The position numbers and the translations under genes are program-made. From an uncultured Candidatus Peribacteria bacterium (GTDB lineage: Bacteria; Patescibacteriota; Gracilibacteria; BD1-5; UBA2023), in the NCBI GenBank assembly GCA_964430065.1, contig CAYSEP010000002.1:10973-46672 (forward strand): a stretch of DNA of 35,700 bases, read 5' to 3'. Numbering within the stretch: the first letter of the stretch is position 1; every line of letters begins with the position of its first letter. The notes beneath the pieces were generated by a model. That model was given only the letters and a program-made list of their open reading frames with translations. It searched no databases and had not been told where the DNA came from. Positions 1 to 35,555 of the stretch are shown piece by piece.

Positions 1-632
1 GTATCGAGAAGGTGGAAATTATGAGAAATAATAATAACCAACTTCGACATACTTCGCCACTTGTCGATCTCTTTCGACAGGATATCAATAGCACCAATAT
101 CGAGACCTGAGTCGATCTCATCGAGGACGATCACACGAGGATCAAGCAGAGCAATTTGGAGCATCTCTATGCGACGCTTCTCTCCTCCAGAGAATCCCAC
201 ATAGAGATCACGATCAAGGAACTTCGCATCGAGTCCATAGGTTGGCAGCATCTTCTCTACCATACGACGAAATATAAATGGCGTCGGTACCTTCTCTCCA
301 GGATGAGTACGAGTGAAATAGTGTACATAGATCGTGCGGAGATACTCGAGGAGACGTATCCCTGGGATCTCTGGAACAGATTGGAATGAGAGAAATATTC
401 CCTTCGTCGAAAGGATATCAGGACTGAGCCCTATCAGGCTCTCGTCATCGAGAGTAATATTTCCTGAGACTGTATAGCGTGGATGTCCGAAGAGGGCAAA
501 TGCGAGAGAAGATTTTCCACTTCCGTTGGTTCCGAGAAGCGCATACGTCTCTCCATGGTCGAATGTATAAGAAAAGTCTTTCACGATCTCCTTCTCTCCT
601 ACAGATACAGATATGTGATCCAAGATAAGCAT
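1..632 (-). CDS. sufC: Fe-S cluster assembly ATPase SufC; the C-terminal end runs off the window start
   Basis: ATG at 632-630. Hand translation gives MLILDHISVSVGEKEIVKDF...[26 protein letters not shown] (Walker A), VGFSGGEKRRIEMLQIALLDPRVIVLDEIDSGLDIGAI (ABC signature plus Walker B). It is collinear with E. coli SufC. It is missing from the ORF track because no stop lies inside the window. Confidence 0.85.
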   Translation of the reverse strand, partial: MLILDHISVSVGEKEIVKDFSYTFDHGETYALLGTNGSGKSSLAFALFGHPRYTVSGNITLDDESLIGLSPDILSTKGIFLSFQSVPEIPGIRLLEYLRTIYVHYFTRTHPGEKVPTPFIFRRMVEKMLPTYGLDAKFLDRDLYVGFSGGEKRRIEMLQIALLDPRVIVLDEIDSGLDIGAIDILSKEIDKWRSMSKLVIIISHNFHLLD

Positions 633-728
633 GTGCGTATGATAAGGATGCGGAGACAAAATGCAAAAGTTTTTCTCACGAGCAACAAAAAATCCCCTCA
701 TTTCTGAAGGGATTTTCTTATCTTTTCT

Positions 729-758
729 AAAAACCAAAAACCCTCGCCGAAGCGAGGG
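729..758 (-). terminator. Rho-independent terminator downstream of the S-layer gene
   Basis: On the minus strand the stem is CCCTCGC, the loop TTCG and the return arm GCGAGGG (741-758), followed by TTTTTGGTTTTT (729-740). It lies 38 nt after the stop at 796. Confidence 0.7.
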
Positions 759-795
759 AAGTTGGAAAACTTAAAGAGAAATATTCTCTAGAAAG

Positions 796-3729
796 TTAAG
801 GCATAGATGTAGCAGAAGCATTAGCCTCAGTACCAACATCGTATGATCGACTAACTGCAACACCGTTAACAACATATGAAACGTTGCTAGCAGAGATAGT
901 TACCTGATCTCCTGTCGCCCAACCTGGAACAGTATCCATATACACCTCAAAGCTCGTTGAAGAATTCTTTGTAAGTGGAACAGGTATTGTTGAAAGGTTA
1001 GCAAAGTAGAATGTGCCAGTAACACCCGCATTTACAGCAGTAACTGCGTTTGAGTATCCTGAATTCGTACAAGCATTCGTACCATTGCTTCCACCAACTT
1101 CTCTTATACAAAGAGGAGTGTTGATAGTAGGAGCAGTTCCGTTTGCAGTGTAACGATACTTGAACTCAAGGGTAATACCTGAAAGGGTAATACCAGTATT
1201 TGAGTCACCATTTGTAATAGTGATCTTAGCGATTGCCTTAGTACTTGCAAGAAGTTTTACAGAATCAACCTTGATTGAAGGTGGAACTACACTGATTGTG
1301 TATGCCTTCATAGTCGCAGTAAATGCTGGAAGTCCAACTGTAGCACCTCCATTTACTGTAGTTGCTGTAATATCTGTAGGACTGACAACACGAAGCTGTA
1401 TTCCAGAACCGTAGATTGAATCAAGAGTCTTAACTGTAGTAAATACTACCTTAATATTCTGATCTTCATCTTTAGCAATGTTATTAAACATGCCATCTAC
1501 GGTAATAGTATTACCTGAGATAGTAACAGTACCCTGAAGTTTTGCATCAGTAGCAACATTTCGAAGTTCGACACTAGAAGCATCTACAACGTTAGAAAGA
1601 AGAGCTGAACCAATGTTATTTACAACGAGTTTTGTTACACGAACCTCATCACCTTCAGCACGAAGAGCAAATCTTCCAGCTTCTTGGTTTGTTGCAGAAG
1701 AAATCTTATCATTAGAATTTCCTGTATTTACAGTAGCATTCTTAAGGGTAAGAGTAGGAGCTTGGATAGTAGTCTTATCACCTGTTACTGTATCAGTAAG
1801 GAGAGATACTGCATTATTAGCAGCATCACGAACATCCGAAAGTTTAACTTGGAATGTATAGTTCTGAGAACCAACGACAGTGTTCTTTACAGAAGAACCA
1901 ACGATCGTGATACGAGCAGCAGTAGCTGTATCCACAGGGATAGAAACTGTCTTAGTAATAGGAAGGGCCCAGTTATCACTAGAGGTGATAGTAGCAACCT
2001 CAGAACCATTTACCTTAACTGAAAGTTGATCATTCGCAAATGCAAGAACACCACTTCCAGTAGTTGGAATAGTGTTAATAATGAGCTGACGAACATTAAG
2101 CCCAACTGTAGAAGTTACCTTAGCATCGAAGAGAGTCACATTAGACGCCCCTGGAGCAACAGTAACGTTAGCAGAAGATTGTTTAGTATAAGTAACATCC
2201 ACGTTAGAGAATGTGACTAGCTCATTGAATGAAGCAAAACCAGTTGTAGTTGTAGAATAACCAGTTGCAACCTCAGTAGCTGAGACATCAGAAGATGAAT
2301 CAATCTTGAATCCGAGAGTATTAGTAGAGGCGCTTCCATCAACGAGAATGTCAGCCTTGATCTCGAATGACTGGAAGTTACCAGCAGCGAGAGCATTAGC
2401 AAGACCAGAAACAGAGAGCTTATCAGCAGTAACTGTAGCAGTACCGACAGCTACACCGTTCTTGTATACCTTAACGTTAGCAAACTTCTTCGTAAGATCG
2501 TTTGATCCGGAACGAGTAAGTGTGAATCCGTTTACAGTAACATCACGAGAACCAGCAGTAAGATCTACCTTAGCGATAGCCTGTTGAGTCTTACCTGGAG
2601 TAGCAGTGTAGTTAACAGAACCTCCAACAGTAATACTAGCTGTTACGTATGAAGTAGTGTTGAGAAGACCGAGAGTCACCGGAGCACCAGTAACCGTAGT
2701 ATTATCAGCATTTACCGCAGTAAGAGTGAACTGGTGTTGGCTATTCTCAGCACCTGAAAGGTTCACGAGGATATCTACTACCTGAGACGCACCAGCCTTA
2801 ACGACGAGAGCAGGGTAGAAGTATACAGTACCTACTTGAGAAGTAGCGTTGTAGAAGTCTGAAGAAGACGATACTACCACACCATTCTGAGCAGCACGGA
2901 TACCGTTATTTGCAGAGATATCAGCAGAGTTACCGAGACCAGAGCGAGTAACCGCAAGAGATCGAACAGTAACATCGCTAGATCCAGCCATAAGTTTAAC
3001 TGAACCAACCTTTACTGAAGATGCGTTCTTAGGAACGTATTGAGCCATAGCTGTCCCTTCGAGAGAGGCAGTAAGAGCACCCATAACAGTTCCAGTAGAA
3101 ACAACACCAGTTCCAGAAGGAGGAACAGGATCTACAGGATCGACAGGAAGCTCGAGACCTGCTGCACATGCAGCGATCTTAAATGCTTCACCGCGAGATG
3201 CAGAAGCATTTGGGCGGAAGTAGTCGTTGTCAGCTGCACATCCGAGCTCGTTAGCACGGTTTACATAACCAGCAAGGTCACCAAGGGCACTAAGGTCCAT
3301 GTAACCTGCATCTGCATCTGAAGGAAGTTCACCGAGAGCACCGAGGATCATTTTGACCATCTCAGCACGAGTGACATTCGCATCTGGGCGGAATGTAGTA
3401 GAAGCTGTAGAAACGATACCTGCGTCAGCAAGGGCCTCTACATATCCACAAAGAGAATGAGAAGCAGGAACATCTCCGTATGTATCGACACAAGTAAGTG
3501 CATCCATACCACCGAGATTAGCAACTACCTTTGCGAGTTCCGCGCGGGTGATGTTACTAGAAAGACGGTAACCAGCCTCAGTATTTGAGTTGATTACACC
3601 GTTGTCAGCAAGCAATTCAGCATAAGGAAGGAACCCAGAAGCAGCAGATACAAGTGATGCACTTGCAGAAGCAGCCACGAGAGTGACGATCCCAACACTA
3701 GAAGCAAGCTTCGTAAAGAAGTTACTCAT
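796..3729 (-). CDS. S-layer-type cell-surface protein: signal peptide, 3 N-terminal SLH-like repeats, PVDPVDPVPP linker, then about 5 Ser/Thr/Val-rich beta-domain repeats
   Basis: The track ORF is 796..3807. I prefer the internal ATG at 3729 (MSNFFTKLASSVGIVTLVAASASASLVSAAS looks like a signal peptide). There are three SLH-like units ending in ITRAELAKVV, VTRAEMVKMI and ASRGEAFKIA. Recurrent units of the type AIAKVDLTAGSRDVTVNGFTLTRSG follow. There are no in-frame TGA, a strong promoter and a terminator. Confidence 0.85.
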   Translation of the reverse strand: MSNFFTKLASSVGIVTLVAASASASLVSAASGFLPYAELLADNGVINSNTEAGYRLSSNITRAELAKVVANLGGMDALTCVDTYGDVPASHSLCGYVEALADAGIVSTASTTFRPDANVTRAEMVKMILGALGELPSDADAGYMDLSALGDLAGYVNRANELGCAADNDYFRPNASASRGEAFKIAACAAGLELPVDPVDPVPPSGTGVVSTGTVMGALTASLEGTAMAQYVPKNASSVKVGSVKLMAGSSDVTVRSLAVTRSGLGNSADISANNGIRAAQNGVVVSSSSDFYNATSQVGTVYFYPALVVKAGASQVVDILVNLSGAENSQHQFTLTAVNADNTTVTGAPVTLGLLNTTSYVTASITVGGSVNYTATPGKTQQAIAKVDLTAGSRDVTVNGFTLTRSGSNDLTKKFANVKVYKNGVAVGTATVTADKLSVSGLANALAAGNFQSFEIKADILVDGSASTNTLGFKIDSSSDVSATEVATGYSTTTTGFASFNELVTFSNVDVTYTKQSSANVTVAPGASNVTLFDAKVTSTVGLNVRQLIINTIPTTGSGVLAFANDQLSVKVNGSEVATITSSDNWALPITKTVSIPVDTATAARITIVGSSVKNTVVGSQNYTFQVKLSDVRDAANNAVSLLTDTVTGDKTTIQAPTLTLKNATVNTGNSNDKISSATNQEAGRFALRAEGDEVRVTKLVVNNIGSALLSNVVDASSVELRNVATDAKLQGTVTISGNTITVDGMFNNIAKDEDQNIKVVFTTVKTLDSIYGSGIQLRVVSPTDITATTVNGGATVGLPAFTATMKAYTISVVPPSIKVDSVKLLASTKAIAKITITNGDSNTGITLSGITLEFKYRYTANGTAPTINTPLCIREVGGSNGTNACTNSGYSNAVTAVNAGVTGTFYFANLSTIPVPLTKNSSTSFEVYMDTVPGWATGDQVTISASNVSYVVNGVAVSRSYDVGTEANASATSMP

Positions 3730-4019
3730 AATAATATATGGGTAAGAAAGTAAAAAGCGGATATCTCCGCATGACTGGAACAAAAGATAATCATGGTCAG
3801 TGATCATCAGGGTGATTTCTTCTGGTCAGGAAGAAATCGCCTTTTCTGCCACAAGGACAGAAGAGGTTAAAGCTTTAACCTCAAGTTATTTGCATAACGA
3901 GAGGATCTGGTCTCTATAAAGGAACCAAATCCTCTCCTTATACAGTGATTATCGAGGGGACCAAAGCTGAGGAAAATGATGTTAAAGAACATCTAGAGGG
4001 CGACAAGCCTCTAAAATAC
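3730..4019 (-). promoter_or_regulatory. Long (about 290 nt) hairpin-rich 5' leader of the S-layer mRNA
   Basis: Stem-loops: 3811-3841 (12 bp stem, 7-nt loop), 3841-3865, the palindrome gaggttaaag/ctttaacctc around 3863-3882, 3901-3934 (11 bp with one mismatch) and 3994-4013. The last one sits at the predicted 5' end of the transcript. No convincing ORF is present. Confidence 0.5.
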
Positions 4020-4026
4020 GCGGCTA

Positions 4027-4055
4027 ATAATATGGAAATGAGGGGGTAAAGTCAA
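4027..4055 (-). promoter_or_regulatory. Sigma70-like promoter of the S-layer gene
   Basis: On the minus strand: TTGACT (4055-4050), a 17-nt spacer, then TATTAT (4032-4027). This is a near-consensus -35/-10 with optimal spacing. The predicted TSS is around 4018-4020. Confidence 0.55.
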
Positions 4056-4119
4056 ATGAAAGTGCTCTCTCTTCACGATATTTTCACTTCGAAGTATAGG
4101 GGAAATACAGAAAATAAAA

Positions 4120-4149
4120 TTGCAATAATTATTTTTTCGCTTCTACAAA
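4120..4149 (+). promoter_or_regulatory. Candidate promoter for rny
   Basis: TTGCAA (4120-4125), an 18-nt spacer, then TACAAA (4144-4149), about 120 nt upstream of the rny ATG. It is only a weak match in an AT-rich spacer. Confidence 0.3.
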
Positions 4150-4267
4150 AGACGGTAAGAGGAAAAGAGAAAAAATAATTCCTTTTTCTACAAAAACACA
4201 TAATATGAAGCTGTCGCAGGTAAAATATGCACAAAATGAATATCCTACTCACTAAAAATCAACCTAT

Positions 4268-5782
4268 ATGGACCTTTTTTCTCTTCTTGCCCTTGTATGA
4301 GGGTCTTTTCTCGGTGCTCTCGTAGTCTGGCTCATATCCCAAAATAAAAATAAATCCCAAAGTACTCGCCTCATAAAAGAAGCTGAGGAACAGGCAAAAA
4401 CTATCATATCTCGAGCAGAAGAAACCAGAGAAAACACAAGACGCGAGATCGAAGAAGCAAAAAACGATCTTCGTGACCGCAAACAAAGCATCACCGAAAG
4501 TGAAGAGCGTCTTTCTGATAAAGAAAAACGTCTCGATGCCAAGTTCGAAGAAATCGATGGGAAACGTGTCGCTCTCCTCGAAAAAGAGAAATCGCTCGAA
4601 AATAAGCTCGAATCGGCAGACCAAAAATCTCGTGAGATCGAGGAAAAGCTCGAATCCGTAGCAAGACTTTCACAAGACGATGCCAAAGAGCTTCTGATGA
4701 AGTATACAGAAGAGCGCTACGAGAAAGATATCCTGAGCCTTATCGATAAAAAGAAAAAAGACCTAAAAACTCGTGAGCTCGAAGCCACTCGTGAGATCCT
4801 GATAAAATCTATCCAGCAATACGCTGGAGAGGTATGTGGTGAGACAACCCAAACTCTCGTAACTCTTCCGAGTGATGACCTGAAAGGAAAACTCATAGGA
4901 AAAGAAGGGCGAAATATCGTGGCATTCGAGAAGGCAACAGGAGTATCTCTTATCATAGACGATGCTCCAGATACGGTATTTCTCTCGAGCTTCGACCTGT
5001 TTCGTCGCTATATCGCCAAGAAGTCACTGGAAGAGCTCCTCGAAGATGGACGCATACAGCCAGCCCGCATAGAAGAAGTCGTCGAGAAAAACCAAAAAGA
5101 AGCAGATAAGCTCATCACGGACTTAGGGCGAAAAACCGTAGAAGAAATGAACGTGATCGGCATCCCCGACGAGATACTTCCACTCATCGGAAAGTTCCGA
5201 TTCCGCACGAGCTATGGACAAAATATCCTCATGCACTCGAAAGAGGTTGCCTATATCGCTGAAGCTATTGCCAAGATGATCGGTGCTGACCCAGTCCTTG
5301 CACTGAAGGGAGGACTTCTGCATGATCTCGGAAAAGCCATGGACCACGATATCGAGGGAACTCACCCGGAGATCGGCGGACGTATCGCTCGAAAATATGG
5401 GCTCGACGATAAGATAGTCAATATCATAGAAGGTCATCATGACGATGTGCCACAGATTTGTATAGAAACCAAGATCGTACAGATCGCCGACGCGATATCA
5501 GCAGTACGACCAGGCGCTCGTCGTATGAATGTCGAAGACTATGTGAAACGTATCCAAGAAATGGAAAATATTGCCATGAGTTACCCTGGTGTCGCGAAAG
5601 CCTATGCTCTCTCCGCAGGACGTGAAGTACGCGTATTTGTCGATGCAGACACCGTCTCTGATCTCGAGGCAGAGAAAAGAGCAGGAGAAATCGCAGCGCA
5701 GATCGAGGCGAACTGTAACTATCCAGGAGAAATCAAGGTTATTATCTTCCGCGAGAAAAGAATCGTTCAGTACGCGAAGTAA
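4268..5782 (+). CDS. rny: Ribonuclease Y (N-terminal TM helix, coiled coil, KH and HD domains)
   Basis: The track ORF 4697..5782 carries KH (LIGKEGRNIVAFEKATGV) and HD (LLHDLGKA...GHHDD) motifs. The same frame extends upstream through one TGA (4298-4300) to the ATG at 4268. This gives MDLFSLLALV-G-GSFLGALVVWLI (membrane anchor) plus a Glu/Lys-rich coiled coil, the canonical RNase Y layout. Confidence 0.9.
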
Positions 5783-5817
5783 AAACACCCTGAATCCTTT
5801 ATTCTTAAGCTCATTTC

Positions 5818-6615
5818 ATGTACCCCACGATAGAATTTCTCGGCATCACGGTATATACTTTTGGGACACTTCTCTCTATTGCTTGGCTTTTGTTCTTTGT
5901 TCTCTTGCACCGATTTTCATGGAAAAAATGATTCACGAAACCGATATTTAGCTCTATCGTTCCTTTCACACTTTCTTTGTTTTTTTTCTCGCGGATTTTC
6001 TATATATTTTCTGAATGGGTAGAGGAGAAATACGTCCTCATGGAACTCGCTTATGGGCATATATTCTCTTTTTTAAGACTGTTTTTTATCCCGCAAGACT
6101 ATCACTTTTCTCTCTTCGGAGCGATATTTGGTTTTGGTTTGGTATTTATGATACTCACGAGCAAGAATAAAAAAGAACGCCCTGCATATCTCGATGTTAT
6201 TGCTCATGCATTCCTTTGGAGCGCTCTTCTCGGGTACTTCGCGGCCCTTCTCTGAGGGCAAATCTACGGGATAGCATGGAGCTCCCCAGTATCTCTCATA
6301 TACGACCACAAAAATAGTATCGTCACTGCCCGAAGTGCACTCTTTCCTCTCCCAATCGTCTATATGATACTCTGTGGGGGGATACTTTTCGCCCTTTCGA
6401 AAGTAACAAAACACTGACATCTTCCTGATGGGTACATAGGTTCTCTCGGGCTTGGACTGTTTGGTGTCACTATTTTTCTTTTTGATTTTCTTTCTGGAAA
6501 TAGGAAAGATATATTCTACGATTACTTCTCTCTCGGGATGAACCAGATCGGATGACTCATACTTGTACTCATAGCGGTTCTCGCTATCCTCAGAATTACT
6601 GGCAAAAAAATATAA
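5818..6615 (+). CDS. lgt: Polytopic membrane protein, divergent prolipoprotein diacylglyceryl transferase (Lgt)-like
   Basis: One frame is open from ATG 5818 to TAA 6613-6615, with 4 in-frame TGA and no TAA/TAG (checked triplet by triplet). By eye it is collinear with Lgt, for example ...LLGYFAALL-G-GQIYG where Lgt has G-R-x-G-N-F-x-N-x-E-L-x-G, and ...LFPLPIVYM... where Lgt has P-x-Q-L-Y-E. Several catalytic-motif residues differ. Confidence 0.55.
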
Positions 6616-6618
6616 TCC

Positions 6619-8124
6619 ATGCCGCATTCTCGTCGTATTTTTCTGTTGTTTTCTCTTTCTCTCCTATTTGGGGTAATTTTTGGGGTAAATTTCTGGAATG
6701 GTGAATACTGGATTCCTGTTCTTATAGGAATCTCTATAATAGGTATTATTTGATACGCATTGAAAAGGGTTTTGCTGCTCAGTATCAGCATCAGTCTTTT
6801 ATGATTCTCCCTTGGGGCCATAAGTGGGTATATCTCATACCAATCACATGTGGGACACTTTCGTATACTCGAAAGGATAACACAGGGATTCGAAAAAAAG
6901 AGTCGTATAGAAGGCACCGTGGAGAAAGAAATTTCCCAAAAAGAACGATCGCGAGTTGTGCTTCTCAGGATCGACACGTTCGACAACTTCGACACAACTT
7001 CGACAATCAGTTTTTCTGGATTTTCTTTTTATAGAGAGGTTTCCAGACCTTCGATCTTTGTCGAAGTTCCCTCGAATCTCGACATCGAGGTCGGAGAACG
7101 CATCGCATTCGATGCCAAAATACGACCAAATATCACTTTTCCTCTCAGTGGATATGACCGATATGCATTTCATAAAGGTGGGTATGGATATGTGTTCCTT
7201 CCTTCGTGGAAAAACATATCCCCGAAGAAACATCCAAATTTCTGGAAAAATACTCGAACATCACTTGCCGAAAGTTACCACTCGATTTTTCCGCGCGATG
7301 TCGCAGGAGTTATCCTCGGGATGACAGTAGGATATACTGATCTTCTGAGTCCTGAGACCAAAAAAGCATTCATCCAAAGTGGAATCAGTCATATACTGGT
7401 CGTGAGTGGTTCAAATATTGCTTTTGTGATACTTTTTTTGGTATTTTTTCTGAAGTATATACCTACGAGACGCAAACTCGTACAAATACTTGTGGTAACC
7501 CTATTTCTCCTCCTCTATGGGATGCTCGTATCGTGGGAAGTATCCGTACTCCGCGCAACCATCATGGGCATACTTACCTACACCATAGCCTCTACTGGAA
7601 ACAGAGTCGCATCTCGTACGCCGCTGGCTCTGGCAATCATAGTCCTCTCACTCTCGGACCCTCTTGGTGTTCTCTATGATGCTGGATTTGCTCTCTCGTT
7701 TGGTGCTACTCTCGGGATCATTCTCTGTAAAGAACGTGTAGAATGGCTTTTATCGAAACTTGCTCTCCCGAAAAATCTGGCCCCGTATTTCTCCATCACA
7801 CTCTGAGCCTCGATCGGGAGTATACCAGCACTGGTATATCATTTTGGTACATTTTCACCACTTTCTATCATAGCAAATATCCTCATCGCATGAGTGCTTG
7901 GGTGGATTCTTTTTGGTTCTGTAGCACTTATCTTCATAGCGAAGTTCTCATCTTCTCTAAGTTTCGTATTCGGATATACTCTCTATGTTCCCGTAAAATA
8001 CCTGATGTGGGTAGGGAATTTTTTTGCTTCGTTTCCGAGTATCACATTCTCTCATGAACAAGCAATTCTCATTTCACTATTTTTGTATGGAGTTCTGATT
8101 ATGTTTTTTATACTCGATGATTAA
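6619..8124 (+). CDS. comEC: ComEC/Rec2-family DNA internalisation channel (OB/DUF4131-like N-terminus plus Competence domain, no C-terminal metallo-beta-lactamase domain)
   Basis: ATG 6619 lies 4 nt after the lgt stop. The frame runs through 4 TGA and joins track ORFs 6850..7806 and 7894..8124. It has the Competence-domain signature FIQSGISHILVVSGSNIAFV and multiple TM helices. Length is 501 aa. Confidence 0.8.
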
Positions 8125-8138
8125 GCATTATTTCCCAT

Positions 8139-8864
8139 TCAGAAAAGACTATTCACATCGACAGAGGAATTGACTCGTAGGGAGATATCTGCATCTTCGA
8201 GAAACACTTCAAGTGTCTTTCGGTATTCGCTCGTGATAAACGTAGCGTAGGTTCGTGCTGTTTTCTCAGGAAGGGTGACATTCCGGAGGGAAAGAAAAAA
8301 TGCGAAAAATGCTCCGACTGCATGGTCAGCATACATGCTCGTTTCTTTCGATGAGAGGAGAGAGAGAAGTTTCTGGGAAAGAACAATAGAAACCTCCTTT
8401 TCTCTGAGAAACTGACGAGAAAAATCTACCCAAAAACTCATCCAGTCACGTATCGCTGGATGGAGCGTCGAATCATCGAATGGTACTGGGGATCCGTAGT
8501 GGGGAAGCGCGAGAAATCGGTGAATCTCCTCATGTTTTCAGAGTTCTTTCAGGATATATTCGAGAGCTTCTGGGTAAAATAATGATATCGTCGCAAGTAT
8601 ATATCTCGATGGATACCCATGCTCGAGAAGTACTATCACCAGAGGGATAAGATCTTCATAGAGGGGATTTTGGATAAATCGGGCTAATATATGAAAGAGA
8701 GCATTATTATCTCACTTTGCTCTTTGTTCATCTTTTTGTGTTTTTTGGAGCTCTTTTTGTGCTTTTTTTGACGATTCTTTCTGGCGTTCACTTTTCTCAC
8801 TTGGGGCATCGGAAGAGGCTCCAACTCATTCGGAATTATCGAGATCCATATCATCGAGTGACAT
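8139..8864 (-). CDS. Hypothetical protein with a Lys/Glu/Gln-rich N-terminus
   Basis: The frame of track ORF 8139..8441 stays open upstream through 3 TGA to ATG 8864 (alternative ATG 8849), bounded by TAA at 8877-8879. I recognise no motif. It converges on comEC. Confidence 0.55.
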
Positions 8865-8915
8865 ACAGGAAGGGTATTATGGTATAGGATAGGCTTCACA
8901 GAGAGTCTTTACCTG

Positions 8916-10112: not shown

Positions 10113-10194
10113 AGGAGTGAAAGTAAAGAGTAGAGAGAGAATTTTTTGGTATCTTAGTCTATATTGAGATTGGGGTTGGAGAGAAAAAACATAG

Positions 10195-11448: not shown

Positions 11449-11725
11449 GGAAAATGATTCTCGAAGATATATAGGAAATAAGTGTAGGAAAATATAGGAA
11501 AAACACAAATCAATATATTTTCTTTTTTCACAATTATTTGACTGTCAAAAAGTAAAATAACTTCTCTTCCAAAAAAGGATACTATAGAATAAATCTTATT
11601 TCTTTGTAGAAAACTTTTGTTTTGATTTTCCTCTCTAATGAAGAAAAGAAATGAAACAAGGATATCTTATAATAATACTATAATATAAATTATAAAAAAC
11701 AGGTATTATTCTTTATAGGCTTCTC

Positions 11726-11753: not shown

Positions 11754-11761
11754 TTCGACGT

Positions 11762-25395: not shown

Positions 25396-25502
25396 ATTTG
25401 TATGGGTTATTACCTCTTCAGACTAACATATACAAAAAAATATGGCAATTTTCTTACCATACTTTCCCCCTATTTCATATTGACAGAAGTATAAATATAT
25501 TT

Positions 25503-26417: not shown

Positions 26418-26470
26418 AAAGTAGTTAATGAGATTAATTCTCATTATATATAAAAAAAGAATATTGCAAA

Positions 26471-27022: not shown

Positions 27023-27561
27023 GTGATATGGGGGTCTTTAAGATAGATGGGAGCAAGTCTTTCTTCTCATGTTTTTTCCCGAAAGAGAGAAACGATATGG
27101 GGGAAGTCGTAGGTATATTCTATGAAGTTTTTCCCTTCTGTAAAATCATTTTTGTTCCCATATCCGACATAATCATCGTTCGCCAACTTCGACATGTCTG
27201 ACATGTCGAACATCTGTGTCGAAGATGGTCATATTTGCACTATATATTCGCGATCATTTGCCTTCAGTACTCACACTCATCTCTCGATCGTGTCGAAGAA
27301 GTGGCAAGACTTCAGTGTGATATCCCGTGTGAGCCTGAGGCTCGAGAGAGTCAATGTGACAATCCTCATACGAGTGAACGCTCCTGGTCAGACGATGCAC
27401 CATATTTCTTCTATAGCATATTTATCCAGAAGTCAGACGATGGTTTCTGGAAACTGACTAAAATCATCTCACTTTGGAAGTGAGACCTGTGTGACTATTT
27501 CAGAACCATTGAGGACGAATATTTCGATATTTTCAGATACAGGATTGATAAAGAGTTCCAT
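26992..27561 (-). CDS. tsaB: tRNA t6A37 biosynthesis protein TsaB (YeaZ)-like
   Basis: It is not in the ORF track because it carries 9 in-frame TGA. The frame is open from ATG 27561 (alternative 27597) to TAA 26992-26994. Translation is MELFINPVSENIEIFVLNG...EEIWCIV-G-PGAFTRMRIVTLTLSSL (the GPGSFTGLRIG-type motif) ...LAPIYLKDP. The 3' end overlaps the next gene by 31 nt. Confidence 0.62.
27188..27210. repeat. Perfect 23-bp palindrome inside tsaB
   Basis: TTCGACATGTC-T-GACATGTCGAA has 11-nt arms and a 1-nt centre. The arms contain the over-represented GTCGAA(G/C) word. Confidence 0.9.
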
Positions 27562-27607
27562 AGAAAAAGTATATGGAAAATCATTTTTTTGTCACATTTA
27601 TCTTGAG

Positions 27608-29119
27608 CTAGACGCCACGATAGGAGAGCGCTTCAAGGACATGGCGAACTTCGACATCTGGCGAACGATCGATATCGGCGATCGTACGAGCAACACGAAG
27701 TATCCTATAGTAGACACGAGTCGAGAGGTGGAGTCGCTCTGTCGAAGATATGGCGATCTTTCTTGCTTCTTCGGAGATTTTGGCGAAGGTGTCGATGTCG
27801 GTATTCGACATTTCTGCATTTCTGTGAAGTCTGGTTCCGTGGAATCTCCCTCTCTGGATCCCACGAGTTTCTTCTACGATTTCTGCGTAGTCTCGAGTCG
27901 TCTTTTCTCACTTCTTCCCTTCGAGTTCGCCCGGTTTCACCCGAGGAACCTGGATAAAAATATCGATACGATCGAGGATCGGACCTGAGAGGCGTCCACG
28001 ATACCGTTCGATCGCATGAGGACTACAGATGCAGGATTTCTCAGGATCTCCCATATAACCACAAGGACAGGGGTTCATAGCACCCACCAGAGAGAATCGA
28101 CTCGGATAACGACAACTCATATTCACACGGTTGATCGTGATCTCGCCGTCTTCGAGCGGCTGACGAAGGGTCTCGAGGATATGTTTGTCGAACTCGAGGA
28201 ACTCATCGAGAAAGAGCACTCACTTATGAGCGAGGGATATCTCTCCTGGTCGTGAATCTCGGCCCCCTCAGATAATCGATGCCTCGCTTGCCGTGTGGTG
28301 GATGATACGAAATGGGCGTTCTCGTACGATCGGCATATCCCGAGTCAGGAGCCCTGCGACGGAGTATATCTTCGAGAGCTCGATCTGCTCTTCGATATCC
28401 ATAGAGGGAAGTATACCAGCGAGAGCCTTCGCAAGCATCGTCTTTCCAGAACCAGGAGGACCCTGCATGAGGATATTGTGCCCGCCCGCTGCTGCGATGA
28501 GGAGAGCACGCTTCGCTTGTTCCTGACCATGGATCGAAGAGAAATCGACTATCATACGGGTTCGAGGAATACTTTCTATATCGAGTTTTTCTGCTGGTTT
28601 CATAAGCACCGTTCCCTCTAGGATATCGACGACTTCTGAGAGTCTCTCGACGGCGATGACATCGATCCCGGGAATGACGGATGCTTCTTCTCGGTTCGCT
28701 ATCGGGAGAAATACTCGCTTCATACCGATCTCTCGAGCGAGTATGGTAGCAGGGAGAGCTCACTGGACTCAGCGTATCACTCCGTCGAGTGCGAGTTCTC
28801 CGAGAAAAAGAGAACTTCCGAGTATCTCCTCGTCGAAGGCGATCTCTTTCGCGAGGATGCCGAGAGCGATCGGGAGATCGTAGATCGGTCACTTCTTACG
28901 AAGGTCTGCTGGTGCGAGATTCACGGTGATGCGTGCTCCGCCAGGGAAGCTATATCCAGAGTTCTTCACAGCAGCTCGGACACGCTCGCGAGACTCCTGT
29001 ACAGCAGTATCTCCGAGTCCGACGACCGTAAACTGTCCCATTCCTGTGATGACATCAACCTCGACTTCGACGAGCTGACCAGAGATCCCTGCGAGGGAGG
29101 TAGAAAAAAGTTTTTGCAT
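27608..29119 (-). CDS. comM: Mg-chelatase-like AAA+ protein ComM/YifB
   Basis: Four track fragments (27608.., 27908.., 28268.., 28889..) share one frame and are joined by TGA only (gaps checked). Motifs: [56 protein letters not shown] and NPCPCGY. ATG is at 29119 ([11 protein letters not shown]). Confidence 0.88.
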
Positions 29120-29339
29120 ACGAATATGGTACAAAAATTTCTAACAAATTTCTAAACTTTCGGACATATTTTTCGAAATTGTATTGCAACTTCTGTTCTT
29201 TCATGCAAAAATATATGAATTGTCTGGTAAAGTTCTTTTTTCCGCATTTCTCTCGTCTTGTAAAGTCAAAAGCAAGTACAATATTTGGTTTCATACCAGA
29301 TTTCTGATACTATGACGAGAGTTAGCCGTATTCTCTCTC

Positions 29340-32300
29340 ATGATTTTTCGTATTTTCGCATCTGTACTTCTCTTCCTCATTTCCGAGGAAACCTTTGCCA
29401 TACAAACACGAGTGGCGACGAATAGTGAGCAAGAGAAATGAGTATTTTCTGCACTCTGGGATACTATCCTCTATGTTACGGAAAACATCATCAATATCAT
29501 CATCTTTGTCCTCATCGCGTGGATGCTTCTGAAAGTTATCCGTCTTGCCTATGAGGTCCTCATGGCGGGGCGCCTGATCTATATGAAGGTGACGCTTCCC
29601 CGTGCCGACTCGAAGCTCGACAAAGAACGCGAAACCAAAAAAGACTTCAAGGAAAAGGTCGGTATCATGTCTGTCTTCTATAAGTCTGTCCATAATCTCA
29701 CTCAGTCGAGCGCGCTCGATACGATCATGAATGTGATATTTCGCCATGCGAAGATCTCTCTCGAGCTTATGTATCATGACGGACAAGTGCATTTCTACGC
29801 TGTCGGATACAAAGAGCACCTCTCGCTCGTCGTCCAGCAGATCACCTCGAACTATCCCGATGCGGAAGTGAAACTGATCGACCGAAAGGATTTTCCTGAG
29901 ATCAAACCACTTGGATTCACCCTTCAGGCGGCTTCTATCAGCAAAGACAATGACGATGTCTACCCGATAAAGACCTATAAATACTTCGAAGATGATCCAC
30001 TTTCGACTTTCACGAATAATTTCTGATCACTCAAGAAAACTGACGTCGCCTCGATCCAGCTCGTCGTGAAGCCACTCGGCCACTCATGGAACCGTAAAGC
30101 GAAAAAAGCAGCAGGTCTCGTCGCAAAAGGAGAATATAAAAAAGGAATCAAATCTGGACTTCTCGTCTCGATTTTTAAGGGTATCACCGCGCCGATAGCA
30201 TGGCTTTTCTTTCGTTTCCTAAAAAATGAGGAAACCGGAAGTAATGCTCCAGGAGCGACAGGAGGCGACTCATATAAGATATTTAACCAAGCTGAGACAG
30301 AAGCGCAAAAAATGGTCGGAGAGTCTGCGGGTCAGCCAGGATTCCGTGCGAGTATGCGTATCCTCGTCTCATCTGATACGAGTGCATCTGCCAGAAGCGC
30401 ACTCCAGAACCTGGTCGCTGCGACTTCGATATTCACGGATGAGTATAATAACCGACTCGGTAACCCTCAGATGATCGAAGATCCGCTGCGGTTTATCTTC
30501 ACTCCACTTCGCTACTTCGCGTACCGATTCCGACTTGTCTGAGTCATGCAGGGAATCAGTAATTTCTCTTGTGACGAACTCTCGACACTCTACCACTTTC
30601 CTGATATCAACTACAATAAGTCTCCCATTATCAGCTGGCTCGAATACAAAATGCTCTCACCTCCGTCGAATCTCCGATTTCCGAAAGAGCCACTTATCAT
30701 GAAGGACTATAAGCGTGATGCAAAAGGAAACATCTTCACCGAAGATGGATCACTCCTTCGGGTGGATAAAAATAAAAACCTCGAAAGAAGTGCCGACAAG
30801 GACCTCATCCTTCTCGATGGTACTATCGTCCCTGTAGCAAAAGAAGGGGAAAATATCGGAAAGCCACTCGATACCGGAAAGACTCCAATCCAGATCGACG
30901 AACAGCGCAAGCTCCAAGGATTTCCTCTCTATAAAGATGGAGTATTGATGGGATGGAACGAATACCGAAATAATAAAACTCCGATTTATTTCTCGAAAAA
31001 AGATCGTGGACGACATCACTATATCATAGGAAAGTCAGGATGAGGAAAGTCAGTATTTATCGGCTATCTTGCCCGTCAAGACCTCTGGAATGGTGAGGGT
31101 CTCTGTGTCATCGATCCGCATGGCGACCTCGTCGAAGATATCGTCGCCTTCACTCCGAAAGAGCGCGCGAAAGATATGATCATCTTCGATCCTGCCGACT
31201 ATGAGCGCCCAATGGGACTGAATATGCTCGATCTCATCGCGACGGATCCGAGTCTGCGTATGATCGAGAAAGATCGTGCGGCACTCGATGCAACCTCAAT
31301 CTTTATCAAGATGTATGGAGATGAGATATTTGGACCCCGTATCCAACACTACTTCCGAAATGGGTGTCTGACTCTCATGGATGACGAAGAAGAAGGGGGA
31401 ACACTTATCGATGTTCCACGACTTTTCGTCGATGAGGCCTTCATGAAGTATAAGACATCGAAGATCAAGAATGTGATGGTAAAAGCTTTCTGGGAACATG
31501 AATATGCTCAGACGGGAGATCGTGAGAAGCAGGAGATGATCCCATTTTTCTCAGCGAAATTCGGTCCATTTATTACCAATACGACGATGCGAAATATCAT
31601 CGGTCAGACGAAATCCGCCTTCAACATCCGACAGGTGATGGACGAACAAAAAGTCCTCATGGTGAATCTCTCGAAAGGAAAGATCGGAGATCTTAATGCA
31701 CAACTTCTGGGTCTCATCATGGTCTCGAAGATCAATATGGCGGCGATGAGTCGTGCAGACATGCGAGAAGAAGACCGAAGAGATTTCTATCTCTATGTCG
31801 ATGAGTTCCAGAATTTCGCTACTGACACGTTCGGAGAAATCCTCTCAGAAGCTCGTAAGTACCGACTGGCCCTTATCATGGCTCACCAGTTCATCGCACA
31901 GATCGGAGGATCAGGAGATAAGCAAGGGAAATGAGGGAAACCGTCGATCAAAGACGCTGTCTTCGGAAATGCGGGGACGATCATGTCGTTCAAGGTCGGT
32001 GCTGAAGATGCCGAGTATCTCGAAAAGGAATATGCACCATCCCTTTCTCAGCAAGATATCATCGGTATCGCGAACTTCACGACCTACTGTAAGCTCAATA
32101 TCGATAACGCGACGACTCGACCGTTTGACCTGAAAACCATCTGGGACAACACGTATAAAAACGCGGAAGTCAGCAAAATCATAAAAGAGTATTCTCGAAA
32201 AATGTATGGTCGCAAAAAAGAATATGTCGATATGGAGATCGAAGCCCGTATGGGAATCGTACGAGAAGAGGACAAAGAGCCTCCAGCTTGAGATACAACC

Positions 32301-32357
32301 ACTACTCCAACGATCACACCAGATACTCCTCCAGCTTCGACAGAATCTTCACAATAA
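29340..32357 (+). CDS. Type IV secretion coupling-protein-like ATPase (VirD4/TraG/TraD family) with an N-terminal extension of about 560 aa
   Basis: The frame runs from ATG 29340 to TAA 32355-32357 and joins 5 track ORFs through TGA only. The N-terminus has a signal-like segment plus a TM helix (IINIIIFVLIAWMLL). Walker A is HHYIIGKSG-TGA-GKS (TGA at 31041-31043), followed by CVIDPHGDL. Walker B is FYLYVDEFQNF, then LALIMAHQFIAQI. The tail is Thr/Pro-rich. Confidence 0.8.
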
Positions 32358-32372
32358 CTCATTCCTTCCACC

Positions 32373-33575
32373 ATGCTTCACCGCATTCTTCCCATCATCG
32401 TCCTTCTCCTTGTCATACTTGATACGACAGTGCTTTTTGGATTCGGAGGGTCTGGGCCACTTGCAGGTTTTGTGATTTCGATGAAGCCCTTTGCTTACGG
32501 TATAGTCCTCATCGGACTTCCTCTCCTCTACTTTATCGTCTATAAGGCGTATATCGGACCTGTACAGCGACTCAATCAGAGCATCGCGAAGTTCATGACG
32601 GGGATCGACGAAGAGCCCAACCTCGAAGCGAATAGCTGGAGCAAAGGAATGAACTATATTATTAATTTCTTCATAAAAAGTCTCCAAATTCTGAAAGTCT
32701 TCAAACAAGAACTCCGTGATGGTCGAAAACTCCGCTCAGAAGTCGAGATCGCCTCAGAAATCCAGAAGCGAGTGATCGCGAGTGAGACGAGTATCGTCCC
32801 ATCTCTGGAGATCGCCATGGCGAGTTGTCCCGCATCTGAAGTGGGAGGGGATTCACTCGATATCATCCCTGGAAAAAATGGAAACTACTATATCTATGTC
32901 GGTGATGTGACATGACACGGGGTTCCGAGTGGATTCGTCATGATGATGGTGAATGCTCTGGTATCAGCATTTGTCGTATCGGAAGAGAGTAGTGCTCGAG
33001 TCCTCTCCGAGACGAACCGCATCCTGAAGCCTCGTATCAAGCAAAATATGATGATGACCTGTGTCATGCTTCGCTGGAATGAACCACACAAGATGCTCTA
33101 CTATACAGGAGGCTGACATGAGTATCTTCTCGTCTATAAAGCAAAGGAGAATAAAGTCTACAAAATAAAATCAGGTTGAGTCGCCCTTGGTATGGTTCGA
33201 GATTCTTCGAAAGCGATGATAGAGCAACAGATCCTCTTCGAGAAAGAAGATATCATCATCCTCTATACTGACGGCATCACGGAAGCTCGCTACCGCAGTG
33301 AACAAAATTGACTTCTTTTCGGAATCGATAGAATAGTCGAGTCCATAATGAAAGTGGAGGTAAAAACGGCAGAAAACATATTCCGTCATCTCACTATAGA
33401 TCTCTCCTCGTTCATGGGATACAAGCACAAACAATACGACGATATCACTCTCTTCGTCGCTCGAAATGTGGGCTCCTGAGGTATCACTCTCTCCTCTATT
33501 CCCGACGCGATAGATCCTGCGAACATTACCGAATGGAACTGGTGAAAAAAACTCGCAGAACCAAAAATACTCTAA
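32373..33575 (+). CDS. Membrane-anchored PP2C/SpoIIE-family serine phosphatase with a HAMP-like linker
   Basis: It has two N-terminal TM helices and a HAMP-like YIGPVQRLNQSIAKFMTG. PPM motifs are EIASEIQKRV, SEVGGDSLDI, YVGDVT-TGA-HGVPSGFVM and ILYTDGITEA. There are 6 in-frame TGA. The start lies 15 nt after the upstream stop. Confidence 0.8.
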
Positions 33576-33587
33576 AAAATTTCTCTC

Positions 33588-35555
33588 ATGGCGGTCCCTT
33601 CTCTCGCAGAACTCATCACGAAAAACTACACCGGAGATGTCGAATGACTCGAATCTCGGGGAGTGAATTTCGTCGCGTCTTCGTGAGAAACCATGGTAGC
33701 GTCTCTAGCAGAGCCAGAAGACATCACTCCACAAATAGTGACTCTTCCTTCGCCAACTTCGACACCTTCGCCAGTCACTGTCGATCTCGAGGATCCGACT
33801 CGTAAACTCTCGAAAGAAGAAGCAGAAGAGCTCAAAAAAACGGAAAAAGAATATAAAGAAGCTCTCGCCTTCATAAAGGATATGATCGCTCCTGCGATGA
33901 TGCGTATCGATGCGACGAAGCTCCAGATCGGGGATACCTATATCCGCACGATATTTACCTATGCATACCCCGATGTACTCGAAGGGAACTGGCTCTCACC
34001 GCTCATAAACTGGGATGTGAAGTTCGATGTATCGATGTTCATCTACCCTATCGACTCTTCTCGTGTCATGAAGTATCTGAGAAAGCGTCTCACGCAACTT
34101 CGCTCTCAGTACGCGATCAACCGTGAGAAATGACTCATCAGCGATCCGCACCTCGACGCACAGATGCAAGATGTCGAAGAACTTCAGGTTTCACTGACTC
34201 GTGGTCAGGAGAAATACTTCCACTTCTCGCTCTACGTCACGACGTATGCAGAAAGCGAAGAAGAGATGAAGCGCCTCTCGAATACGCTCGATGTCATGCT
34301 TGCAGGGCGTAATATCCTCACGAAACAATCATTTCTCCGTTCCGAACAAGGATTCGTCGCGACAGGTCCGTTTGCTCGAGACGAGGTGAATGTCTTTCGA
34401 AATATATCCACAAAAGGTCTTTCGACGACTTTCCCTTTCAGTTCCAATAGCCTTTCGCAGGATGATGGTATATTCTATGGAATCAATACTCATAATAATT
34501 CGCTTATCATCTTCGATAGATTCAAAACAGAAAATGCGAATATGTGTGTCTTCGCGAAATCTGGATGAGGAAAGTCATTTGCTGTGAAGCTCGAGATCCT
34601 CCGCGCCCTCATGCTCGGGACGGATGTCATCGTCCTCGATCCAGAGAATGAATATCGTGCTCTCGTCGATACTGTCGGAGGAACATATCTGAATATCAAT
34701 CTAAACTCTGATGAGCGGATCAATCCATTTGACCTTCCACGAGGACTCAAAGACACAGAAGCACACCCAGGAGATCTCCTGCGCGGTGCGGTCGTGAATA
34801 TGCTCGGACTCCTCCATCTTATGCTCGGAGTTATCACTCCTTCCGAAGAAGCGCTTCTCGAACGAGGACTGATCACTACCTACTCACTGAAGGGGATCAC
34901 CATGGAAGATGACTCTGCAGAAGGGAAAGAAATCCCACTCATGAAAGACCTTCTCTCTGTCCTGGAGACGATGGACTGAGCTCGCGGGCTTGTCGAGCGT
35001 CTCGACAAATATGTCACAGGAATATTTGCTGGAGTTTTCTCGGAACATACGAATGTGAACCTGAAAGATGGACTCGTCGTCTTCTCGGTCCGAGATCTCG
35101 ATGATATCCTCCGACCGATCGCTATGTATATCCTCCTTGGCTACGTGTGGAATATCGCTCGTTCCTCTGAGAAAAAACGTATGCTCGTCGTGGATGAAGC
35201 GTGGAATATCATGCAGTACGAAGACTCTGCGAAGTTCCTCTTCGGTCTCGTGAAACGTGCTCGTAAATACGGACTCGGTGTCACGACGATCACACAGGAT
35301 GTCGAAGACTTCATGACGAACCAGTATGGGAAAGCGATCGTGACCAACTCCTCGATCCAACTCCTCTTGAAGCAGTCTCCTGCCTCGATCGATGTCCTCC
35401 AGGATGTCTTCAAGCTCACGGAACAAGAGAAATATATCCTCCTGAATGCCTGAGTCGGTACAGGACTCTTCTTCGCCTGAGGAGAACATGTCGGTATCCA
35501 GATCCTTGCTTCGTACTTCGAAGAGAAGATCATCACCACGAAGCCGAATGTGTAA
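33588..35555 (+). CDS. VirB4/TrbE/TraC-like type IV secretion ATPase
   Basis: The frame joins track ORFs 33693.., 34164.., 34584.. and 35055.. through TGA. Walker A is VFAKSG-TGA-GKSFAVK (TGA at 34566-34568), followed by VIVLDPENEY. Walker B is MLVVDEAWNIM, then GVTTITQDVEDF. The start is either 33588 or 33693. Confidence 0.82.

Follow-up and report, generated by a model that had tools for sequence, protein, structure and literature searches.

Within 35,700 nucleotides of an uncultured Candidatus Peribacteria bacterium (assembly GCA_964430065.1, contig CAYSEP010000002.1, positions 10,973 to 46,672 of the forward strand; this whole stretch is called the window throughout) a short DNA word, TGKCGAA(S), where K is T or G and S is G or C, is strongly over-represented inside genes. 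We think it quite possible, though short of probable, that this is a selected duplex-DNA recognition word, kept in defined genes of two clades of Gracilibacteria that use genetic code 25 and bound head-to-tail by a protein. Judged from sequence, the word looks like a protein-read signal of a kind unreported for these uncultured bacteria. The analysis covered about 36 kb of one genome together with loci of up to 23 kb from relatives (designated by L numbers), mostly anchored on uvrA or virB4.

A preliminary description of the window had singled out the octamer TGTCGAAG, with 25 copies on the two strands. Every position and strand that it listed was exact, seven copies of the 11-mer TGTCGAAGTTG were counted as it had claimed, and its minus-strand cluster near 33745-33770 is present as GGCGAAGGTGTCGAAGTTGGCGAAGG at 33750-33773; its estimate of about 40% GC was slightly low, the window having 43%. 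Apart from A-rich words TGTCGAAG is the commonest 8-mer in the window. Against the 25 copies observed, dinucleotide shuffling gave an expectation of 1.75 +/- 1.3, Markov-order-3 simulation 3.9 +/- 1.9 (maximum 11) and codon shuffling within genes 1.8 +/- 1.3. Permutation of synonymous codons within each gene, which keeps the protein, its dipeptides and the codon usage of each gene, gave 3.5 +/- 1.7 copies (maximum 10), with none of 1000 shuffles reaching 25. The enrichment thus stands under the Markov null, and the codon- and dipeptide-preserving shuffle, which the preliminary description had proposed as the test of its claim, fails to reproduce the count; codon or dipeptide bias is thereby ruled out. 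As the excess lies in context-specific synonymous choice, it constitutes a signal at the level of DNA.

In order to define the word we scored all k-mers against the synonymous-shuffle null. The leading 7-mers were TGTCGAA (43 copies vs 8.3 expected) and TGGCGAA (23 vs 3.7), and the leading 6-mers were TGTCGA (84 vs 31) and TGGCGA (41 vs 13.7). In a table of single-base neighbours all seven positions of the core are specific, the word being enriched 5-6.5 fold and its variants mostly 2 fold or less. At position 3 T (5.1 fold) and G (6.5 fold) are equivalent, with A at 1.8 fold and C at 0.8 fold, and this equivalence is seen in every reading frame; at position 7 A is favoured over T. The profile begins abruptly at its 5' end, favours G or C at position 8 and dwindles in information by position 11. 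The true word is TGKCGAA(S), of which TGTCGAAG is the commonest form.

Among shorter words TCGA is the most enriched tetramer (387 vs 272 under the synonymous null) and TTGA/TCAA the most depleted (223 vs 377 expected), and TTGACA/TGTCAA, the sigma-70 -35 consensus, occurs within genes 4 times vs 21.5 expected. The latter depletion may reflect avoidance of spurious promoters, and it may be linked to the motif, TTCGACA being TTGACA plus one C. Such figures are in keeping with a neutral by-product of context-dependent mutation or repair, either very short patch (VSP)-type correction of T:G mismatches or a bias creating CpG, as TCGA is raised, its transition neighbours are lowered and the direction is that of T-to-C correction. 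We nevertheless consider a by-product of this kind very unlikely. Specificity is just as high at T1 and G2, outside TCGA, each of the three substitutions of G5 in TGTCGAA is depleted and not the transition alone, TGGCGAA contains no TCGA and its transition neighbour TGGCAAA is not depleted; by the neighbour table CpG or VSP-repair bias was ruled out. A genome-wide process would, moreover, neither spare neighbouring genes nor make phased arrays, and the motif survives T/G transversions that change amino acids. The gene-specific distribution described below speaks against a mutational origin and largely refutes it.

All 25 copies of TGTCGAAG lie within coding sequence, where they fall into five classes of frame and orientation, being read in sense as V-E (11 copies), S-K (4) and C-R-S (1) and in antisense as S-T (6) and F-D-T (2). 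For TGKCGAA the occupancy is 11-60% across nearly all frame and strand classes, and the 41 copies in sense (146 protein-compatible sites) and the 25 in antisense (139 sites) are both far above expectation. A translational effect, whether through preferred codon pairs (GTC-GAA, TCG-AAG, GGC-GAA) or through a signal in the mRNA, could draw on the commonest class of copies being the sense xxT-GTC-GAA-G (V-E) and on the surplus of sense over antisense copies, but it is scarcely credible: synonymous shuffling abolishes the excess, which had already been predicted to be poorly explained by codon pairs, antisense classes are equally saturated (TTC-GAC-A fills 6 of 10 sites), neighbouring copies stand in different frames and the T/G equivalence is independent of frame.

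Orientation is balanced too, as the preliminary description had noted in setting the word apart from KOPS and Chi, with 14:11 copies of the 8-mer and 67:58 copies of the 6-mer core on the two strands of the window, and 275:299 when pooled over seven motif-rich loci, none of which is skewed. A Chi-like strand skew of 75% is rejected (p = 2e-7). This balance of strand and sense makes an RNA-level or polar replication signal unlikely. A polar signal would be a Chi recombination hotspot or a guide for DNA translocases such as the FtsK-orienting polar sequences (KOPS) or SpoIIIE recognition sequences (SRS); these too are short over-represented words of 7-8 bp, ours lies near recombination and repair genes, and the highly iterated palindrome of cyanobacteria (HIP1) has been called Chi-reminiscent. 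Chi and KOPS were ruled out by strand balance, the clumped and gene-specific placement is unlike theirs, and we regard a polar signal as highly improbable.

Synteny with the window extends to two relatives, L001 and L003, whose DNA is 70-78% identical to it and whose codon identities at identical amino acids are 0.55 and 0.47 respectively. Retention of the motif was scored at sites whose overlapping amino acids are identical, with 7-mer identity as the control. L001 keeps 21 of 27 motifs (78% vs 30% of control 7-mers, p = 4e-7) and L003 14 of 20 (70% vs 21%, p = 3e-6), while L002 retains 7/15 (control 23%) and L005 5/13 (control 24%). A swap between T and G can keep the motif despite a change of protein, as where HVE written with TGTCGAA becomes YGE written with TGGCGAA, or where FGE becomes LVE, MAK becomes MSK and RSP becomes RST. 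In a drifting segment of uvrA (residues 136-152) the window has 2 copies, L003 has 3 TGTCGAA at exactly 11 bp and L001 has none, arrays being rebuilt at the same place. Synonymous identity outside the motif codons is alike in motif-rich and motif-poor genes (0.44-0.65), so that the constraint is site-specific and not a regional homogenisation. On these comparisons the motif is conserved beyond what the proteins require.

The copies are also phased. Same-strand neighbours lie 9, 10 and 11 bp apart 8, 6 and 7 times in the window, 7, 4 and 7 times in L001 and 4, 3 and 5 times in L003, with a minor secondary peak at 21 bp, and the 9-11 bp peak recurs in L002, L005, L011 and L013. In the last two genomes, which form clade B below, the 9-bp spacing dominates and the overlap palindrome TGTCGACA is also frequent. 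With the copies per gene and orientation fixed and redistributed among the gene's own protein-compatible positions, 3.8 +/- 1.8 pairs at 9-12 bp are expected in the window; 22 are observed, a number reached in 0 of 5000 permutations. We mapped eighteen arrays of 2-4 copies, which lie in comF, comEC, trxB, virB4, uvrA, comM and other genes. Since neither 10 nor 11 is a multiple of three, adjacent copies at these spacings fall in different frames.

With a view to establishing how widely the word occurs, we gathered 80 genomes via UvrA and measured the density of TGKCGA in each. The window, L001, L003, L002, L005, L011 and L013 have 3.4-6.3 copies per kb, six other Gracilibacteria 0.3-1.6 per kb and about 65 unrelated genomes mostly less than 1 per kb. 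There are dialects, TGTCGAA leading in the window, L001 and L003 and TGGCGA (as TTGGCGA) in L002 and L005, with L011 and L013 also favouring TGTCGAC. In a neighbour-joining tree of a single gene, UvrA, the window, L001, L003, L002 and L005 form clade A and L011 and L013 clade B, and the immediate sister of clade A (L004, L006, L007, L008) is motif-negative. Samples of 6-23 kb from motif-negative Gracilibacteria held no alternative hyper-abundant or phased word. The patchiness across clades would fit a dedicated reader or writer having been gained or lost.

Placement of the word is linked to genes and is not uniform genome-wide. Compatible sites are highly occupied in uvrA (17/34), comF (6/11), trxB (6/12) and a gene for a 201-aa protein (5/6), as well as in comM (7/23) and virB4 (6/17), and sparsely in the genes for serine hydroxymethyltransferase (SHMT, 1/7), RNase Y (1/8), the M17 aminopeptidase (0/4), the coupling protein of a type IV secretion system (T4SS; 2/20) and the S41 peptidase (0/14). 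The two surface-protein genes have 1/25 and 5/55 sites filled (6/80 together); their claimed lack of the motif therefore holds for the exact 8-mer and not for the family, of which TGKCGAA has 1 and 5 copies there. As the grouping into rich and poor genes was made post hoc, the fair test is the all-gene chi-square (p = 1e-6) and not Fisher p-values. Bins of 1 kb hold 0-13 copies (dispersion index 3.7) and gaps between 8-mers reach 7.2 kb.

The same linkage is seen in L321, L322 and L323, which were reached by homology search through VirB4 homologues. Their TGKCGA density is 13 per kb in uvrA, 10-13 in trxB, 6-11 in comM and 4-6 in virB4, and in the next 10 kb it is 0.8-1.7 per kb, about the synonymous-null background of 1.26 per kb. 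These background stretches encode EF-P, an S1-domain protein, S20, IF3, L35 and YidC, along with an RHS protein, hypothetical proteins and a second T4SS ATPase. The uvrA gene of clade B is dense again, beside different neighbour genes, and so in that clade are murB, a rluB-like gene, a glycosyltransferase gene, a DHH phosphoesterase gene and uvrB, with membrane and hypothetical genes poor. Across some 60 genes, from loci anchored on uvrA or virB4, the dense set includes genes of repair and import (uvrA, uvrB, comM, comF, DHH/RecJ-like) but also trxB, murB, the rluB-like gene and the glycosyltransferase gene. Between uvrA and trxB the giant surface gene has been inserted in a lineage-specific manner, and it is mostly motif-poor.

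These distributions bear on the proposal, made in the preliminary description, of an uptake tag similar to the uptake signal sequence (USS) of Pasteurellaceae or the DNA uptake sequence (DUS) of Neisseriaceae. The competence machinery (ComEC, ComF, ComM and possibly the T4SS-like system) would favour DNA with TGKCGAA, and the word would build up by biased uptake and recombination, preferentially in genome-maintenance genes. Like the USS of Haemophilus our word is balanced in orientation, free of frame and mostly coding, it has lineage variants (TGTCGAA, TGGCGA and the palindrome of clade B), and it is scarce in the inserted surface gene and in RHS and hypothetical genes. The presence of uvrA, uvrB, comM, comF and the DHH/RecJ-like gene among the dense genes recalls the DUS, which is said to be biased towards genome-maintenance genes. 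Cyanobacterial HIP1 has recently been linked to transformation, and natural competence has been demonstrated in Patescibacteria, namely Saccharibacteria (PMC10633639). The gene map and Pfam confirm that the window encodes ComEC, a ComF-like protein and ComM, as had been predicted. Competence genes, ComEC included, are widespread in Patescibacteria, however, and their presence here is consequently weak evidence.

What stands of the uptake proposal is a DNA-level signal that is indifferent to frame and orientation, unskewed and conserved, with lineage-restricted variants. Its clumping, with the long gaps and background flanks just described, does not agree with it, nor do the 9-11 bp tandem arrays, which are foreign to USS and DUS, or the absence of copies from terminators and intergenic DNA. 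Long-resident conserved genes leave cost-free synonymous sites empty (SHMT, T4SS coupling protein), which simple molecular drive does not predict. Synonymous-compatible sites also stand unused in the conserved housekeeping genes for EF-P, the S1-domain protein and ribosomal proteins. Synonymous divergence is not lower in motif-rich genes and recombinational homogenisation is not seen, and the motif is missing from the sister clade, in spite of the wide occurrence of ComEC in Patescibacteria. On balance we regard an uptake tag of this kind, and the build-up of the word by biased uptake and recombination, as unlikely, if well worth bearing in mind.

A second precedent is HIP1 itself (GCGATCGC). 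By analogy, an orphan methyltransferase would act at TGKCGA or at the embedded TCGA/GCGA and the methylated sites would be under selection for some part in maintaining, replicating or repairing the chromosome, which is what has been proposed for the cyanobacterial word. Hyper-abundance, conservation beyond codon and amino-acid constraint and lineage variants are all shared with HIP1, the word is scarce in presumably highly expressed genes (those for S-layer-type, EF-P, S1-domain and ribosomal proteins), clade B favours a palindrome, and patchy gain and loss across clades would suit a mobile methyltransferase gene. The word of clade A is, however, asymmetric and K-degenerate at position 3, and TGGCGAA lacks the TCGA palindrome. 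No methyltransferase is encoded in the window, methylation alone leaves the head-to-tail phasing unexplained, and an enrichment of 5-7 fold is well under the 15-300 fold reported for HIP1. We judge both the epigenetic word and the chromosome-maintenance role that it would carry to be decidedly unlikely.

The reading that we prefer is one of a word read by a protein. TGKCGAA(S) would be a duplex word held by selection inside a set of protein-coding genes, with its copies standing head-to-tail 9-11 bp (sometimes 21) apart in arrays of 2-4 and in either orientation to transcription. The reader would most likely be a sequence-specific protein that binds cooperatively, oligomerising head-to-tail along the DNA in the manner of response-regulator-type helix-turn-helix (HTH) or winged-helix proteins. 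Specific bases, the use of both strands, packing at about one helical turn, site-level constraint and patchy clades together point to such a protein on duplex DNA. As density follows the gene, uvrA being dense in every motif-bearing genome, and not the position, the arrays probably serve to label or regulate particular genes or stretches of DNA, many of which have to do with DNA repair or import. Their downstream effect may be gene-body regulation or silencing, or the tagging of segments for uptake, recombination or repair.

Several observations weigh against a protein-read word of this kind. All copies are intragenic, which is unusual for a transcription-factor site, and none is found in the 1641 intergenic bases of the window, promoters and terminators included. 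Pfam searches of the window's proteins found no HTH protein, response regulator or methyltransferase. The spacings spread over 9-11 bp and do not keep one register, with 9 bp prevailing in clade B, so that mere close packing is possible. The core matches the 0A box of Spo0A, but Spo0A is to our knowledge known only from endospore-forming Firmicutes and the match may be a coincidence. Finally, the sampled genome space is small, consisting of about 36 kb and 20-kb loci mostly anchored on uvrA or virB4. The window likewise encodes no Spo0A-like gene (Spo0A_C domain) and no pilin or uptake-receptor candidate.

A more specific version joins protein reading to import: phased TGKCGAA arrays in maintenance and import genes might serve as a self-DNA tag of a hitherto undescribed kind, read by a Spo0A/PhoB-like oligomer coupled to ComEC/ComM and T4SS-like import. 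We hold this version to be doubtful. If true, it would be the first uptake or recombination signal in Patescibacteria, one which safeguards chosen genes and not the whole genome, and whose arrays are written in even at the cost of amino-acid changes.

The gene map on which these analyses rest required a departure from the standard code. Open reading frames (ORFs) called with Table 11 are badly fragmented across the window, and reading TGA as sense raises ORF coverage more than threefold and reveals an ORF of 1977 aa at 19489-25422. In the translation of the window TGA falls on invariant glycines of UvrA (YAE-X-QKRY, LSG-X-EAQR and FNTK-XX-RCEVC), as judged against the motifs of E. coli UvrA, and also on invariant glycines of SHMT and ComM. 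From these positions the genetic code of the window is read as code 25 (TGA = Gly), which assigns the window to Gracilibacteria. With TGA as glycine Table-11 gene calling breaks up almost every gene, and the map was accordingly built from our own code-25 translations and Pfam in place of Table-11 ORFs. It runs from a SufC-like ATPase through an S-layer homology (SLH) surface protein, RNase Y, Lgt, ComEC, a hypothetical protein, SHMT, the S41 peptidase and three low-GC hypothetical genes to the M17 aminopeptidase, a ComF-like phosphoribosyltransferase, UvrA and a 1969-aa surface protein. There follow TrxB, a bPH_2 protein, the 201-aa hypothetical protein, ComM, a VirD4-like T4SS coupling protein, a SpoIIE-type phosphatase and a VirB4-like ATPase. 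The plus-strand T4SS coupling and SpoIIE genes were preferred to a long minus-strand ORF at 30219-33389, which we took to be spurious. The window contains no tRNA gene, hence no tRNA-Gly(UCA), and no match to an Rfam family.

Use of TGA varies from gene to gene. It accounts for 0/82 glycine codons in the SLH surface gene (796-3807, minus strand) and 0/18 in the SufC-like gene (3-701, minus), for 18/41 in the S41 peptidase gene (10195-11448, minus) and for 8/13 in the 201-aa gene (26992-27597, minus). This spread may reflect expression level or differing gene histories. Usage also differs enormously across Gracilibacteria relatives: the 965-codon uvrA of L004 (Gracilibacteria STA_21, motif-negative) has zero TGA and that of L008 has 69. 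A block at 10195-14538 stands out by its low GC (30-38% vs about 44% elsewhere). It contains the S41 peptidase gene and three genes for hypothetical or membrane proteins, is rich in TGA and poor in the motif, and its synteny nonetheless holds in L001, L003 and even in L011 of clade B. The 1969-aa surface gene (19489-25395, minus) occupies a variable slot between uvrA and trxB, which is nearly empty in L002, L003 and L005, holds a 251-aa gene in L321 and carries other large or unknown genes in L322 and L323; it looks like a hypervariable surface-protein island. Divergent to comM stands the T4SS-like trio (the whole at 27608-35555), comprising a VirD4-like protein with DUF8128, a SpoIIE-type PP2C phosphatase and a VirB4-like ATPase. 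This arrangement is kept in all clade-A relatives (L321-L323 at 4000-12000), with a second TrwB-like ATPase in L321 4 kb downstream. No relaxase was seen, which agrees with the description of T4SS in Patescibacteria (PMC12102498).

Turning to individual sites, the first is a 2-copy array at 42-59 on the minus strand (TGGCGAAG and TGTCGAAGTTG) in the SufC-like ATPase gene, followed by a single TGTCGAAG at 5530-5537 (plus) in the RNase Y gene, read as N-V-E-D. Antisense in comEC lies a 4-copy array with spacings of 9, 9 and 11 bp (TGTCGAAGTTG TGTCGAAGTTG TCGAACG TGTCGAT; 6971-7005, minus), which is kept in L001, as is a single TGTCGAAG at 7059-7066 (plus; F-V-E-V) in the same gene. A single copy at 14276-14283 (minus), antisense in a hypothetical membrane protein gene, is gone in L001.

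A motif-dense domain with 10-12 TGKCGA per kb extends over the comF-like gene and uvrA (15893-19453, plus). In the comF-like gene a 4-copy array at 16141-16181 (plus; 12, 11 and 10 bp) shows in L001 the two T/G swaps with protein change (HVE/YGE and FGE/LVE), and two TGTCGAAG 11 bp apart at 16279-16297 (plus) are read in different frames, as I-V-E-D and L-S-K-K. In uvrA there are two antisense TGGCGA copies at 16847-16862 (minus), two TGGCGAAG 10 bp apart at 17028-17045 (plus) in the variable segment and a 2-copy array (TGTCGAC, TGGCGAAG) at 17098-17116 (plus). Further along, TGTCGAAGTTG at 17837-17847 (plus) falls in the C-R-S-C zinc-finger region, where its core is kept in all five syntenic genomes, and TGTCGAAG at 17926-17933 (plus; S-V-E-D) is likewise kept in five genomes. 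There follow a cluster at 18430-18461 mixing both strands and including the palindrome TGTCGACA, TGTCGAAG at 18640-18647 (plus; S-V-E-G) and TGTCGAAG at 19393-19400 (plus; S-V-E-D), close to the 3' end of uvrA. The otherwise motif-poor giant surface gene has three 2-copy arrays (TGTCGA and TGGCGAA variants; 20316-20577) in its 3' part, within a patch of nine TGKCGA copies at 20-21 kb.

A second motif-dense domain, with 5-13 TGKCGA per kb, runs from trxB to comM (25503-29119, minus), and the same genes are dense in L321, L322 and L323. In trxB TGTCGAAG at 25805-25812 (minus; S-V-E-G) is kept in L001, and a 3-copy array at 26161-26187 (minus; 11 and 10 bp; R-V-E-V-V-S-K-I-G-E) is shared by the window with L001, L003 and L002; L002 and L005 show a T/G switch within it. 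The 201-aa hypothetical gene holds a convergent cluster on both strands at 27180-27224, in which 2 minus copies face 2 plus copies, and a single antisense copy at 27291-27298 (plus). In comM two TCGCCA copies flank TGTCGAAG at 27649-27656 (minus; D-V-E-V), and two 2-copy arrays lie antisense at 27740-27795 (plus). A single copy at 32335-32342 (minus) is antisense at the 3' end of the motif-poor T4SS coupling-protein gene. The virB4-like gene carries an antisense 3-copy array with 9-bp spacings (TGGCGAAGG TGTCGAAGT TGGCGAAGG; 33750-33773, minus) and two sense copies of TGTCGAAG, at 34172-34179 (plus; D-V-E-E) and 35300-35307 (plus; D-V-E-D).

Arrays and related words were also looked for in other DNA. 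A scan of metagenomes for the 3-copy array returned mostly the trxB array in clade-A relatives (L270, L217) or unrelated repeats (L293, L313), and so offers no independent contexts. Among viral contigs there was no convincing word-bearing phage, the matches being mostly high-GC chance matches or unrelated tandem repeats. Tandem repeats with periods of 24-33 bp and units like TGTCGAAG occur in L103 (13138-13253, IMG/VR) and in metagenome sequences L209, L243, L248 and L267; these are satellite-like or repeat-protein arrays outside the Gracilibacteria signal. In an unrelated control, the Fidelibacterota metagenome-assembled genome L034, CTCGACA occurs 8 times vs 0.8 expected and five same-strand GTCGAG pairs lie 8-12 bp apart, which may be either a tandem repeat of local extent or a further iterated word. 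The palindrome TGTCGACA, which consists of two overlapping opposite-strand copies of the motif, occurs 7 times in L011, 4 times in L013 and once in the window, and in clade B it represents a HIP-like palindromic variant of the word.

Selected hyper-abundant words are rare, the main examples being USS, DUS, Chi, KOPS and HIP1, and each of them brought a basic DNA transaction to light. No such word has been reported in Patescibacteria, the candidate phyla radiation (CPR), a large group whose members are mostly uncultured and not amenable to genetics. Tandem TGKCGAA is a synthesisable ligand with which its putative reader might be found, and its pattern of presence and absence across sister clades lends itself to phylogenetic profiling. 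If the word affects uptake or recombination, as HIP1 appears to, it would give a practical means of transforming these organisms. The word also shows that the proteins of these reduced genomes evolve under partial constraint from a DNA-level code, its conservation being strong enough to steer amino-acid substitutions.

Full-text literature searches turned up no paper on an over-represented word, or on uptake sequences, in Gracilibacteria, and for the raw motif they returned primers only. Among known systems the word shares with USS and DUS that it is short, over-represented and conserved, occurs in either orientation and several frames, shapes peptides, has lineage variants, is depleted in recently acquired genes and resides in a host with competence genes. 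USS and DUS are spread fairly evenly at about 1 per kb, and are preferentially taken up via a receptor (ComP, with a minor pilin predicted in Pasteurellaceae), whereas our word is clumped in particular genes, forms tandem 9-11 bp arrays, is shorter (7-8 bp with one degenerate position) and belongs to a Patescibacteria host with genetic code 25. Unlike DUS it forms no inverted pairs in terminators or intergenic DNA (none in 1641 bases). Chi, KOPS and SRS are over-represented words of 7-8 bp as well, theirs being tied to DNA transactions; they are strongly skewed with the direction of replication, in contrast to the strand-balanced and clumped word described here.

In the arrangement of copies the nearest parallels are the tandem sites of response regulators. 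The Pho boxes of PhoB are direct repeats of 7+4 bp. The 0A box, 5'-TGTCGAA-3', is bound by dimers of Spo0A~P, and its functional sites consist of two boxes 3 bp apart (PMC2731898). Our word has the identical 7-bp core (TGKCGAA vs TGTCGAA/TGNCGAA) and, like tandem 0A and Pho boxes, forms head-to-tail direct repeats with spacers of 2-4 bp at about one helical turn. Those boxes are sited in promoters and origins, with tens of them in a genome; our copies are coding-only, in both orientations and up to 17-23 per gene. We take the resemblance to the 0A box to concern the mode of recognition, and not to be evidence of homology.

The closest conceptual precedent, by analogy, is HIP1, a word that is conserved by selection, has lineage variants and is scarce in highly expressed genes (PMC5861425), and which, after its role had long gone unexplained, has tentatively been linked to transformation (bioRxiv 10.1101/2024.09.10.611283; bioRxiv 10.64898/2026.06.24.733823). 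Both are hyper-abundant intragenic octamers, conserved beyond coding constraint, whose variants replace one another. HIP1 is a palindrome with two orphan methyltransferases, enriched 15-300 fold genome-wide and with a periodicity of 10-90 kb along the chromosome, whereas the word described here is asymmetric (in clade A), enriched 5-7 fold, and set apart by phased direct arrays and strong gene specificity. Among selected hyper-abundant words its direct phased arrays, its gene-specific placement and its code-25 CPR host are unprecedented.

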